Source: Eledone cirrhosa (Eukaryota). From it: a DNA stretch of 64,000 bases. The stretch lies in assembly GCA_964016885.1 (NCBI GenBank), contig OZ024746.1:50158001-50222000 (forward strand). The letters are read 5' to 3'. The position numbers and the translations under genes are program-made. The notes beneath the pieces were generated by a model that did no database searches, had not been told where the DNA came from, and was given only the letters and a program-made list of their open reading frames with translations. Of this stretch, positions 1,347 through 26,760 are shown piece by piece. Positions within the stretch are counted from its first letter, which is position 1. Every line of letters starts with the position of its first letter.

Positions 1347-1367
1347 ATATATATATATATATATATA

Positions 1368-1540
1368 GGAAAAGACTCATGACCCCGCCGGCTAAGCTCC
1401 GGCCGTCTCGACAGCTAGGTCTGAACTAGCTGTTGAAGCGGCCGGAGCTCAGCCGTCGGGGTCCTGACTCTTTTCCTTGTAGCCACTCTGCTTTCTTGGT
1501 GCATTATGGTCCACCTGGTTACTTACCACACTTCCTTCGT
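1368..1540. other. Module D: GC-rich 109-nt hairpin (1368-1476) plus flank, copy 1
   Basis: Arms 1368-1418 and 1426-1476 are reverse complements with 7 substitutions in 51 and no indels; loop GTCTGAA; flanked by (TA)n; repeated at 5274. Confidence 0.9.
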
Positions 1541-1591
1541 TATATATATATATGTATACATATATATATATATATATATATATATATATAT

Positions 1592-1642
1592 AAATGAAAG
1601 GTATAGAAAACACTGCAGCGAAAAGCCAACAGCACTCCATAA
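1592..1642. repeat. Module A: 51-bp interspersed element between (TA)n tracts, copy 1
   Basis: AAATGAAAGGTATAGAAA...CCATAA; same-length homologue at 26520-26570. Confidence 0.8.
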
Positions 1643-21418: not shown

Positions 21419-24400
21419 ATTTGGGTGCCCGTTTTTTAGGGGGGGGGATTCGTTTTTTATTTGGGTGCCCGTTTTTTAGGGTGGGGTGTTGTCCGTTTTT
21501 TATTTGAGTTCCCTTTTTTATGGGCAGGTCCGTTTTTTTTTTGGGGGGGTCCCCTTATTTTGGGGGGTGTTGGTCCGTTTTTTATTTGGGTGCCCTTCTT
21601 TATGGGGGGATTCCGTTTTTATTTGGGTGCCCGTGTCTTATGGAGGGGATCCGTTTCTTATTAGGGTGCCCATTTTTTATGGAGGTGTCCTTTTTTTATT
21701 TGGTTGCCCGATTTTTATGGGGGAGGTACTCGTTTTTTATTCCGGTGCCCGATTTTAATGGGGGTCTTTTTTGATTTCGGTGGCCTTTTTTATGGAGGGG
21801 TCCGGTTTTATTTAGGTTCCCGTTTTTTATGGGGCGGTCGGTTTTTATTAGCGTGACCGTTTTTTATGGGGGGGCTCCGTTTTTTATGGGGGGGTCCGTT
21901 TTTCATTTGGGTGCCAGTTTTATGGGGGGATTCCGTTTTTATATGGGTGCCTGTTTTTTATTGGGGTGTCCGTTTTTTATGGGAGCGTCCGTTTTTTTTA
22001 TATGGGTGCCCGTTTTTTATTTGGGTGCCCGTTTTTTATGGGGGTGTCGGTCTTTCCTTTGGGTGCCCCTTTTTTGTAGGGGTCCGTTTTTCATTTGGGT
22101 GCCTGTATTTTATGGGGGTCCGTTTTTTATTTAGTTGCCCGTTTTTTAGGGGGGTGTTGGTCCGTTTTTTATTTGGGTGTTCGTTTTTCATTTGGGTGAC
22201 CATTTTTTATCAGGGGGTCCGTGTATTTTGGGGTGCCTTTTTTATGGGGGGTCCTTTTTTTTGTTTGGCTCCCCGTTTTTCATGGGGGGTCCGATTTTAT
22301 ATGGGTGTCCGTATATTATGTGGGGGTCCGTTTTTTATTTGTGTGCTCGTTTATTATGGGGGGACGTCCACTTTTTATTTGTGTGCCCTTTCCTTATGGG
22401 GAGGTCCGTTTTTTATTTGGGTGCCCGTATTTTATTTGGGTGCCCATTTTTTATGGGGCGCTCCGTTTTTACATTTGGGTGCTTGTTTTTTCATTTGGGT
22501 ACGCTTTTTTTTTATTTGGGTGGCTGTATCTTTATGGGGGGTCCGTTTTCTATTTGGGTGCCCGTTGCTTATGGAGGGTGCGTTTTTTATTTGGGTACCC
22601 GTATTTTATTGGGGGAGTCCGTTTTTTATTTCGGTGCCTGTTTTTTATCAGGTGGTCCGTTTATTTTTGGGTGCCTTTTTTATGGGGGATCCTTTTTTTT
22701 ATTTGGCTGTCCGTTTTTTCATTTGGGTACGCTTTTTTTTATTTGGGTGCCTGTATTTTTATGGGGGGTCCGTTTTCTATTTGGGTGCCCGTTGCTTATG
22801 GAGGGTGCGTTTTTTATTTGGGTACCCGTATTTTATTGGGGGGTCCGTTTTTTATCAGGTGGTCCGTTTATTTTTGGGTGCCTTTTTTATGGGGGGTCCT
22901 TTTTTTTATTTGGCTGTCCGTTTCATATGGGGGGTCCGATTTTATATGGGTGCCCGTATATTATGGGAGGGGTCCGTTTTTTATTTGAGTGGCCATTTTT
23001 TAGGGGGGTGTTGGTCCGTTTTTTATTTGGGGGCCCGTTTTTTATTTGGGGGCCCGTTTTTTATGGGGTGGGTTCCGTTTTTATTTGGGTGGGGTTTTTT
23101 TATTTGGGTGCCCGTTTTTTATTGGGGTGTCCGTTTTTCATTTGGGTGCCCGTTTTTTATGGGGGAGTCCGTTTATTATTCGGTTTCCCGTATTTTATTT
23201 GGGTGCCCGTTTTTTAAGGGGGGCCCGTTTTTATTTTATTTGGTTGCCCGTTTTTTATGGGGGGCCCGTTTTTCGTTTGGGTGCCAGTTTCTTATGTGGG
23301 GGTCCGTTTTTATTTGGGTGCCCGTTTTTTATGGGGGGGCCGTTTTTCGTTTGGGTGCCCGATTTTTATGGGGGGTCTGATTTTATTTGAGTGCCCGTAT
23401 TTTATGGGGGGTCCGTTTTTATTTGGGTGGGGTTTTTTTTATTTGGGTGCCCGTTTTTTATGTGGAGGGTCCGTTTTTTATTTGGGTGTCTGTGTTATAT
23501 TTCGGTGCCCGTTTTTTATAGGAGTGTCCGTTTTTCATTTGGGTGCCAGTATTTTATGGGGGTCCGTTTTTTATTTGGGTGCCCGTTTTTTATTGGGGTG
23601 TCCGTTTTTCATTTGGGTGCCCGTTTTTTATGGGGGAGTCCGTTTACTATTCGGTTTCCCGTATTTTATTTGGGTGCCCGTTTTTTAAGGGGGGTCCGTT
23701 TTTTTTATTTGGGTGCCCGTTTTTTATTGGGGATCCGTTTTTATTTGGGTGCCCGTTTTTTATGGGAGGGTCCGTTTCTCGTTTGGGTGCCCGTTTCTTA
23801 TGTGGGGGTCCGTTTTTATGTAGGTGCCCGTTTTTTATGGGGGGTCCGTTTTTCGTTTGAGTGCCCGATTTTTATGGGGGAGGTGCTCGTTATTTATGGG
23901 GGGTCCGTTTTTTATTCGGGTGCTCGTTTTTCATGGGGGGTGACCGTTTTTTATTTGGGTGCCCGTATTTTATTTGGGTGCCCTTTTTTATGGGGGGTCC
24001 TTTTTTATTTGGGTGCCCGTTTTATATTTCGGTGCCCGTTTTTATGGGGGTGTCCGTTTTTTATTAGGGTGCCAGTATTTTATTTGGGTGGTCGTTTTGG
24101 GGGAGGGGATGTCCGCTTTTTAGTTGGGTGCCCGTATCTTTATGGTGGGGGGTCCGGTTTTTTTTTCGGGTGGTGCCCTTTTTTAATGAGGGGGTCCTTT
24201 TTTTCTTGGTGGGGGTACGGTTTTATTTGGGTGCCCGTTTTTTATTGAGGTGTCCGTTTTGTATTTGGGTGCCCGTTTTTTATGGTTGAGTCCGTTTTTC
24301 ATTTGGGTGCGCGTATTTTATGGGCGTCCGTTTTTTATATGGGTGTCCGTATTTAATGTGGGGAGTCCGTTTTTTATTTGGGTGCCCGTTTTTTATAGGA

Positions 24401-26325
24401 GTGTACGTTTTTCATTTGGGTGCCCGTTTTTTATGGGGCGAGTCCGTTTCTATTTGGGTACCCGTTCTTTATTGGATGGGGTTCTGTTTTTTATTTGGGT
24501 GCCAGTTGTTTATGGGAGGGAGTCCGTTTTTTATATCGGTGCCCGTTTTTTAAGGGGGAGTCCGTTTTTTATGGGGGCTCCGTTTTTTGGGAGGTGCCCT
24601 TTTTTATGGAGGGTCCTTTTTTATTTGGGTGGCCTTTTTATGGAGGGGTCCGGTTTTATTTGGGTGCCCGTTTTTTATGGGGGGGTCCGTTATTCATTTG
24701 GGTTCCCGTTTTTTATGGGGCGGTACCCTTTTTATATGGGTGCCCGTTTTTTATTCGGGTGTCCGTATTTAATGTGGGGTGTCCGTTTTTATTTGGGTGC
24801 CCGTTTTTTATGGGGGTGTCCGTTTTTTATGGGGGCGTCCGTTTTTCATTTGGGTGCCCGTTTCTATGGGGGTTCTGCTTTTTAAATGGGTGCCTGTTTT
24901 TTATTTGGGTGCCCTTTTTTATGGGAGGGTCCGTTTTTTTATTTGGGTGCCCATTTTTTATGGGGCGGTCCGTTTTGTTCATTTGGGTACCCGTTTTTTA
25001 TTTGGGTACGCGTTTTTTATTTGTGCGCCTGTATATTTATGGGGGGTCCGTTTTCTATTTGGGTGCCCGTTGCTTATGGGGGGTGCGTTTTTTATTTGGG
25101 TGCCCGTTTTTTATCAGGGGGTACGTTTATTTTTGGGTGCCTTTTTTATGGGGGGGTCCTTTTTTTTATTTGGCTGCCCGTTTTTTATGGGGGGTCCGAT
25201 TTTATATGGGTGCCCGTATATTATGGGGCGGTCCGTTTTTTATAGGAGGGTCCGTTTTTCATTTGGGTGCCCGTATTTTATGGGGGTCCTTTTTTCTTTT
25301 GGGTGCCCGTTTCTTATCTGGGGGTCCGTTTTTCATTTAGGTGCCCGATTTTTATGGGGGAGGTGCTCGTTTTTTACGGGGGTCCGTTTTTTATTCGGGT
25401 GCCCGTTTTTTATGAGGGGTGACATTTTTTATTTGGGTGTCCGTATTTTATTTGGGTGCCCGTTTTTTATGGGGGTCCGTTTTTCATTTGTGTGCCCGTT
25501 TTTATGGGGGGTCCGTTTTTTATATGGGTGCCTGTTTTATATTTGGGTGCCCGTTTTTTATGGGAGGGTCCGTTTTTTATTTGGGTGCCCGTTTTTTAGG
25601 GGGGGGGCTTTTTTATTAGGGTGCCCTTTTTTTATGGGGGTGTTCGTTTTTCATTTGGGTGCCCGTTTTTTATGGGTGTCCGTTTTTATTTGGGTGCCTG
25701 TTTTTTATAGGGGGTCCGTTTTCTATTTGGGTGCCCGTTGCTTATGGGGGGGGTCCGTTTTTGTTTGGGTGCCCGTCTTTTATGGGGTTGTCCGTTTTTC
25801 ATTTGGGTGCCCGTTTCTTATGTGGGGGTCCGTTTTTCATTTAGGTGCCCGATATTTATGGGGGAGGTGCTCGTTTTTTATGGGGTTGTCTGTTTTTTAT
25901 GGGAGGGTGACTTTTTTATTTGGGTGCCCGTATCTTATTTGGATGCCCGTTTTTATAGGGGGTCCGTTTTCCATTTGGGTGCCCGGTTTTTTATGGGGGT
26001 GGTCCGTTTTTTATGGGGGGTGGTCCGTTTTTTGTGGGGGTGGTGGCCGTTTTGTATGGGGGCGTCCAATTTTTATTTGGGTGCCCGTTTTAAGTAGGAG
26101 ATCCGTTTTTTATTTGGGTGGCCTTTTTTATGGTGGGGGGTCCGTTTTTGATTTGGATGCCCGTTTTTCATGGGGGAGCGTATTTTATTTGGGTACCCGT
26201 TTTTTATGGGTGGGCCGATTTTATTTGGGTGCCCGTTTTGTAGGTCCGTTTTTTATTTGGGTGCCCTTTTTATGGGGTGTATCCTTTTTTATTTGGGTTC
26301 CCGTTTTTTATGGGGGTTCGTTTTA
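21419..26325 (+). repeat. G/T-rich satellite, block 4
   Basis: Same monomer and orientation. Confidence 0.97.
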
Positions 26326-26366
26326 CACATGTATATATATATATATATATATATATATATATGCAT

Positions 26367-26760
26367 ATTCATAATAGATCTCACGTAATCAGGCCATTGA
26401 AATATGTATATAGTGTTTTTGTCACAACAAAGCTTTAAAGAAGCATCACCAGTCTGGCCTCCTGTTGTTTCAGTCTAAGCAATACACACACACACAAACA
26501 TATATATATATATATAGATAAATGAAAGGTATAGAAATTGTTTTAGCGAGAAGCTAACAGTGTTCCATAATATATATATATATATATATATATATATATA
26601 TATATATATATATATACATATACAGATATGGAGGTTCTGCGGTAAGAAGACCGGGAAGACAACATATTCTATCAACCTGTTAAAATCCTGATGGAAATCG
26701 TCCTTAAATGATGTCTACTCGTCCTTTTTAAAGAACGCATTCGATAGTGTTGTTTGCAGT
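26367..26760. repeat. Compact island: module B (26367-26484), module A (26520-26570) and module C (26629-26760) separated by (TA)n/(CA)n
   Basis: Direct homology to the copies at 11619, 1592 and 4122. Confidence 0.85.

Follow-up and report, generated by a model that had tools for sequence, protein, structure and literature searches.

A window of 64,000 nucleotides (nt) from Eledone cirrhosa (GenBank assembly GCA_964016885.1, contig OZ024746.1, positions 50,158,001 to 50,222,000 of the forward strand) was analysed, and all coordinates below refer to this whole stretch. Positions 1 to 59870 are occupied by a polar satellite on the plus strand, which is interrupted by four islands. Within the islands, (TA)n tracts alternate with two Penelope-like elements (PLEs), termed PLE1 and PLE2, two tandem arrays carrying hammerhead ribozymes, termed alpha and beta, and shorter modules denoted A to E. 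With a probability of about 0.6, one or two old insertions that carried TA gave rise to the islands, being duplicated and trimmed together with the satellite, and the (TA)n tracts of the islands later took separate insertions of the two PLEs and the two hammerhead repeats. PLE1, PLE2 and both arrays are likely separate insertions and module A is probably another, which likely amounts to four landing-pad events, or up to six if both copies of A are counted.

The satellite and its islands

The host satellite is GC/T-rich, with a 19-base-pair (bp) subunit and a dimer of about 38 bp. Its polarity is evident from two motifs that occur 370 and 340 times on the plus strand of the window and 0 times on the minus strand. 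Exact k-mer matching maps many direct duplications at the kilobase (kb) scale, with offsets of about 0.2-15 kb; megablast of the satellite blocks gave just four pairs. The stretch from 26759 to 44607 is rich in near-exact satellite duplications, 0.3-1.2 kb long and offset by about 0.5-3.5 kb, which reflect either recent higher-order turnover or a collapsed assembly. A scan with satellite k-mers finds four interior interruptions and no others, in addition to the end of the satellite at about 59870. The same four had been reported in an earlier, sequence-only reading of this DNA, and its module orders (D-A-B-array-C, B-PLE1-PLE2-array and B-A-C) are likewise borne out.

Island 1 (1347..4611) reads (TA)n-D-(TA)n-A-(TA)5-E-(TA)n-B'-(TA)n-array alpha-(TA)n-C, B' being a right-truncated B, and joins the satellite on its right without a TA tract. 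Island 2 (5249..5426) consists of (TA)n and a D cut short, and duplicates the left end of island 1 together with its satellite flank. Island 3 (11556..21418) reads (TA)n-B-(CA/TA/GA)n-PLE1-(TA)n-PLE2-(TA)n-array beta and is cut into satellite. Island 4 (26326..26760) reads (TA)n-B-(CA/TA)n-A-(TA)n followed by a truncated C, and its left satellite flank is common with island 3. The earlier description of every island as a chain of TA tracts and modules omitted stretch E, and in island 2 the chain is no more than (TA)n and the truncated D. Equally, inserts had been described as flanked by TA on both sides. TA-like sequence does stand to the left of all 14 module copies, and PLE1, PLE2 and array alpha each lie between two (TA)n tracts. 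To the right, a microsatellite follows 10 of the 14, two long B copies reaching it through a CA run, and the final module of every island (the other 4 of 14) abuts satellite directly. The right end of every island lacks (TA)n.

Module D (1368..1540) is composed of a 111-nt imperfect palindrome (1367-1477) and about 63 nt more, with a second copy in island 2 (palindrome 5273-5383). Its hairpin is predicted at about -89 kcal/mol, with a fold z of -11.6 on both strands. With spaced single mismatches and a 63-nt one-sided extension, D looks like either a hairpin RNA or a PLE-type inverted insertion in miniature. The copies in islands 1 and 2 differ at 1 of 153 positions (99.3% identity). Module A (1593..1641) is about 50 bp long and has 11 differences in 51 positions to its copy in island 4. 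Stretch E (1653..1947) follows A in island 1, measures 295 bp, is present once in the window and contains an 86-codon stop-free frame. The sole match to this frame among 1.84 billion representative sequences was a 7,545-residue perfect repeat that scored by summing weak matches, and it was rejected as a homologue.

The longest copy of module B is that of island 3 (11620..11758), which differs from the island 4 copy at 6 of 113 positions (5.3%). The right-truncated copy of island 1 (2127..2209) differs from the island 3 copy at 3 of 79 positions and from the island 4 copy at 2 of 51. An exact 23-nt B motif has 0 matches in metagenome contigs. Module C is longest in island 1 (4123..4611) and differs from the island 4 copy at 4 of 132 positions. 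It contains a hairpin with 16-bp arms, which is complete in island 1 (4204-4239); 6 nt of the 3' arm are gone in island 4 (26711-26745). By blastn within the window, neither A-E nor the arrays have similarity to either PLE.

Penelope-like elements and hammerhead arrays

PLE1 (11862..16333, minus strand) is a frameshifted Penelope element that is Neptune/Nematis-like by the motif definitions of PMC8557442. It has a 58-nt one-sided tail (11862-11919), and its 3' end is repeated in inverted orientation at 15573-16333, the two arms differing at 11 of 759 positions (1.4%). Pfam matches its GIY-YIG domain (E=5.8e-5) and its reverse transcriptase (RT); the best match lies at the 22.6-bit cut-off and the remaining ones below theirs. 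The protein has 83 homologues, with the highest identities to predicted proteins of Octopus vulgaris, at most 79% over short stretches. It carries a CX4CxxC linker, two cysteines inside GIY-YIG, and DKS. A complete hammerhead lies at 12121 (-) and a second at 16136 (+) in the inverted end. Both are minimal type I ribozymes with a 6-bp helix II and a 4-bp helix I, and shuffled sequences average 0.02 matches. As described in PMC8557442, Neptune and Nematis elements share with PLE1 a CX2-5CxxC linker, two GIY-YIG cysteines, a minimal type I hammerhead, an inverted terminal repeat with a tail, and (TA)n flanks. They differ in having DKG where PLE1 has DKS; the PLE1 copy is broken, and its assignment by motifs fits either clade.

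Among ten relatives of PLE1 in metagenome contigs, one (L004) ends in (TA)38. A PLE1 relative on a metagenome contig (L001) has identical 123-nt ends (1-123 and 3319-3441) and a type I hammerhead at 3237, and was assembled as a circle or a tandem. The N-terminal region of PLE1 (15030-15290) contains a (TGT)n-rich low-complexity expansion that encodes runs of Asn and Thr.

PLE2 (16392..20547, minus strand) belongs to the Hydra clade by the motif signature of PMC8557442. Its open reading frame (ORF), at 20455-18254, is near-complete and broken. Its 51 homologue matches include Argonauta and Octopus sinensis, and the alignment to full-length homologues covers residues 2-699 of 709 and runs through three frames. 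Pfam gave neither an RT nor a GIY-YIG match for PLE2, and the GIY-YIG-type motif IIY...YVG, located by regular expression, is C-terminal after the RT. The remaining motifs are RWR, DKT, CxCX5C, CxxC and CxH, with only one Cys inside GIY-YIG and no CCHH. A type I hammerhead core with an 8-bp helix I lies near the 3' end (16579-16538). The element has a one-sided tail of about 84 nt (16392-16475) and a short inverted 3' copy (20468-20547), and its inverted arms differ by 4.7%.

The endonuclease-bearing (EN+) Hydra-clade PLEs of PMC8557442 have in common with PLE2 a C-terminal GIY-YIG without CCHH, DKT, the CxCX5C linker, CxxC, CxH, a type I hammerhead, (TA)n insertion, an inverted 5' copy and a one-sided tail. 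According to the same source, almost all families of this clade insert into (TA)n. PLE2 differs in its RWR in place of RWK (both occur among the PLE2 homologues that reach the motif), in being broken, and in a tail of about 84 nt rather than 30-40. Its insert of 4.2 kb exceeds the usual length of under 3 kb, because about 1.6 kb separates the end of the ORF from the hammerhead. That interval (16600-18210) contains GA-rich tracts and short TA runs (17508, 17628) and may hide further insertions. A search for PLE2 relatives in viral contigs gave 70 candidate stretches, 0 of them confirmed. An inverted 3' copy at the 5' end with a one-sided tail is a structure described for PLEs (PMC8557442) and has been traced to two internal start sites of reverse transcription (PMC11167929). 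The sequence-only reading had taken the two PLEs as autonomous, and neither copy is: in both, the reading frame is split over several frames and no single intact ORF remains.

The arrays also lie on the minus strand. Array alpha (2303..4043) has (TA)n on either side and contains 3.1 copies of a 560-bp unit, with type I hammerhead cores at 2449, 3008 and 3572. Array beta (20717..21418) contains 1.4 copies of a unit of about 522 bp, with an intact core at 21365 and a core substitution in the first copy. The units of array alpha differ by 0.2-0.4% (1-2 of 560 positions) and those of array beta by 2.2%, and the two arrays differ from each other at 118 of 509 positions (23%). In array alpha, units 2 and 3 have intact hammerheads and unit 1 has a helix III substitution. 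Longest stop-free frames are 48 and 81 codons. Both arrays start at the same base, adjoining TA and about 75 nt past the predicted cut, and both finish in a partial unit, like the partial tandems of PLEs.

By criteria taken from PMC4209133, the hammerheads of both subfamilies are type I, with a 5-bp helix I, a 6-bp helix II and a palindromic helix III. Helix II has a branched extension with an extra C/A pair at its base, capped in array beta by UUCG (2370-2468 (-) and 21289-21384 (-)). Reading the arrays as devoid of hammerhead helices, from a short-range match to the core, was rejected once the greater length of this helix II was recognised. Upstream of helix I, a conserved 6-mer is able to pair with the internal loop of helix II, giving a possible 6-bp pseudoknot; this pairing is uninformative as evidence because the 6-mer is invariant. 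Together with the branched helix II and the extra C/A pair, it would mark an unusual type I variant. By hand register, 3 of 11 pairs in helices I and II are changed on both sides between subfamilies. By MAFFT alignment the figure is 1 of 18, which is not above shuffles (95 of 500), and the free fold of array beta favours another structure. Rfam gave 0 matches to the arrays at the gathering score, and a relaxed E-value yields only TA-driven microRNA and low-complexity artefacts.

Judged from their sequence, the arrays look like non-LTR retrozymes. With the non-LTR retrozymes described from animals (PMC7229834; 10.64898/2026.07.22.740005) they share tandem units that are AT-rich and non-coding, the presence in each unit of a type I hammerhead whose helix III is palindromic, and a host genome that bears PLEs. 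They are filed as retrozyme-like because their units of 560 and about 522 bp exceed the roughly 150-450 bp of the published units (PMC7229834), and they are treated as a size variant. The long branched helix II, the extra C/A pair and the possible pseudoknot are their own relative to the retrozymes described in these sources, as is the fixed end against (TA)n: the word microsatellite occurs 0 times in the available text of PMC7229834 and once, in another sense, in that of 10.64898/2026.07.22.740005.

Probable kinship of the islands and the rival explanations

The evidence that islands are copies of one another begins at their left junctions. For islands 1 and 2, the 60-nt left satellite flanks are mutual best matches among 6,404 satellite windows (0 better), and 6 of 97 flank bases differ. 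For islands 3 and 4, 0 and 2 of the 6,404 windows match better (rank 1-3), and both islands open with (TA)n-B. The four islands therefore reduce to two left junctions. Modules B and C tell a similar story, B standing before C in both islands that hold both, with comparable divergence (2 of 51 and 4 of 132; 3-5% over the B and C comparisons). Four sequencing runs were also matched to the region of module C (4101-4640). One run (X1) was informative, another (X14) gave 7 reads, and X5 and X7 gave 0; the organism of X1 contains 0.56 of the PLE-region words and may be a relative. In X1, the body of C (4155-4567) lies on a single 498-nt contig of depth 19.6, where the other listed contigs have depths of 8-18 and satellite bins 17,000-24,000. 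This contig shares two substitutions and the 6-nt deletion in the hairpin arm with the island 4 copy, and it branches into two right-hand continuations. With its body on one of the listed contigs, C is probably not an amplified family in that organism.

Other modules are unlikely to have come along in the same inheritance. The divergence of A (21.6%) departs from that of B and C (chi-squared over A, B and C, p=5e-5), as does that of the arrays (p=1e-5), and in both cases it is too great for joint inheritance with B and C. The arms of PLE1 are closer to each other than are the B copies that date the split of islands 3 and 4 (Fisher p=0.015), so PLE1 likely entered an existing island. By the divergence of its units, array alpha is younger still. 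The claim of independent TA-targeted insertion made from sequence is thus sustained, by TA flanks and differing divergences, for PLE1, PLE2, the two arrays and probably A. It is not supported for D, B and C, given the pairwise sharing of left junctions, the near-identity of the D copies, the equal order and divergence of B and C, and the single contig of the C body; four independent islands are not upheld either. Descent of the islands as rearranged copies of an ancestor, an outcome named in advance as adverse to that reading, was found for the D, B and C half only.

Orientation adds little to this account. All four hammerhead-bearing inserts had been said to face the same way, and the cores of PLE1, PLE2 and both arrays do lie on the minus strand, although PLE1 has the plus-strand hammerhead at 16136 as well. 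The earlier caution that such agreement is weak at n=4 is justified (two-sided p=0.125, not significant), and chance may account for the shared orientation of the four later inserts. The satellite duplications are direct and would leave the orientation of a copied island unchanged; the shared orientation of B, C and D needs no mechanism beyond inheritance.

Several observations weigh against descent by local copying followed by later insertion. The flank match of islands 3 and 4 fades at 100 nt, where 155 and 371 of 6,381 windows are better, and the two flanks agree at only 52 of 58 aligned bases. Module A precedes B in island 1 and follows it in island 4, an order that requires A to be a separate insertion. 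The copy-number evidence covers C alone in one run, and contig depth is not copy number. Moreover, the first ~35 nt of C stand beside TA-like sequence and then diverge on at least 5 of the 8 listed X1 pieces, and the end of C therefore belongs to a dispersed family. Nine of the ten PLE1 relatives have no (TA)n end, though most seem short of the 3' end. Comparison within the window found nothing distinctive in common among the right flanks of the islands, and candidate empty sites scored 67-83, no better than chimeric controls (68-98), so that no junction stands out as native.

On the sequence-only reading, the modules are all RNA-based mobile elements, each of which landed on its own in the (TA)n of each island. 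The TA on the left of 14 of 14 copies, the head of C beside TA on at least 5 other contigs, the excessive divergence of A and the arrays for co-inheritance with B and C, and the (TA)n targeting by PLEs already in print (PMC8557442) all speak for it. It is nevertheless unlikely, given shared left junctions, a D that is 99.3% identical with its flank duplicated, the matching order and divergence of B and C, and the single X1 contig for the C body; in addition, no island has TA on its right, and the orientation of A, B, C and the arrays does not change from one island to another. The opposite extreme, in which a single long composite ancestor already held every module and gave all islands by rearrangement or deletion, with no later insertion, would explain the single orientation throughout, the shared junctions and the frequent local duplication. 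The same divergences of A and of the arrays, far beyond the 3-5% of B and C, make it quite unlikely, as do PLE1 arms and array alpha units younger than the split of islands 3 and 4, and the existence of two unrelated left junctions.

Alternatively, each island could have been written in one event by a PLE RT jumping between UA-tailed RNAs, which would give polar chains whose TA is confined to the 3' side. TA on the left of every module, its absence from the right ends of islands, and the minus orientation of all four strand-assignable inserts agree with such an event. Against it, the clocks within island 3 differ (PLE1 arms 1.4%, PLE2 arms 4.7%, Fisher p=0.057, and array beta 2.2%), B is older than PLE1 by the comparison given above, island 2 was clearly cut at its right end at a later time, each PLE has an inverted 3' copy at its end, and the strand agreement is not significant, so that this explanation is very unlikely. 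Least probable among those considered is that the repetition is partly an assembly error in a hard repeat, affecting island 2, the third array unit and the satellite duplications. The single difference between the D copies, the 0.2-0.4% among array alpha units and the long exact satellite duplications are what such an error would leave, but differences of 3-22% separate islands 3 and 4 and the copies of B, C and A, those between the flanks of islands 1 and 2 are as noted, and an X1 contig crosses the junction between C and satellite, albeit by only 7 nt.

Beyond the islands, the satellite ends at 59870 against a non-satellite fragment, with no TA at the junction. Pfam gave no identification or match for this fragment (59871-60787), and we take the decayed coding fragment at 59871-60790 (-) to resemble the endonuclease-linker part of a long interspersed element (LINE). 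Further on, 62740-63438 (+) holds an ISXO2-like (IS1595/Merlin-type) DDE transposase frame (Pfam E=1.9e-18), with inverted repeats at 61929-61986 and 62241-62301 nearby.

A candidate mechanism and its meaning

Under the favoured explanation, copying of old TA-bearing insertions followed by separate later ones, the satellite would first have received an old insertion comprising B through C, plus a second junction at D. Islands would then be duplicated, and their right ends trimmed, by unequal exchange both within the polar satellite and at TA tracts, and the inherited modules B, C and D would keep one orientation through satellite duplication. In the tracts so provided, a nick in (TA)n by the PLE GIY-YIG endonuclease would prime reverse transcription of PLE RNA, and the same nick may prime, in trans, the copying of multimeric or circular retrozyme RNA. 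Each insertion would split its TA tract and leave TA on both sides, renewing the target.

The termini give a hint of how copying might start. At both array termini, which are one homologous site, and at the inverted end of PLE2, the element's own continuing sequence matches the TA tract over 4-5 nt. About 1-4% of all positions in these sequences offer a match of this kind, and the matches at the termini were noticed post hoc at two independent sites. They suggest, from sequence, homology-assisted internal priming, unlike the Poseidon element, for which a non-homologous start of reverse transcription is reported. A broader proposal may be drawn from these features: that cephalopods carry large (520-560 nt) pseudoknotted hammerhead retrozymes inserted by PLE proteins into (TA)n, with reverse transcription beginning inside the element, at a constant UAUA(U) motif able to pair with the nicked microsatellite, and with successive insertions of fixed polarity building oriented, self-renewing chains that are then copied by satellite turnover. 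This proposal is speculative and, taken as a whole, rather doubtful.

The central idea is not new, because Neptune, Naiad and Hydra PLEs have already been described as targeting (TA)n (PMC8557442), and the dependence of retrozymes on PLEs is likewise in print. A literature search of main texts did not find cephalopod retrozymes or TA-island chains of this kind, and supplementary family lists may already hold these elements. A 2026 repeat annotation of O. vulgaris reports 31 recently active PLE families (PMC13282606), and the words hammerhead, retrozyme and nested are absent from its main text. Outside the PLEs, (TA)n is likewise the preferred target of MuTAnT (PMC4486113), a plant DNA transposon that is likened here by target preference alone.

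The window is a compact case of one target shared by PLEs of two clades and by retrozymes of two subfamilies. It also carries a caution for the study of satellite islands, where a module that recurs need not be mobile and may owe its copies to local duplication. Of all details in the window, the retrozyme junctions are the most interesting. With their PLE-type fixed end, they offer a concrete substrate for asking by what means a PLE protein chooses its microsatellites and moves retrozymes in trans.

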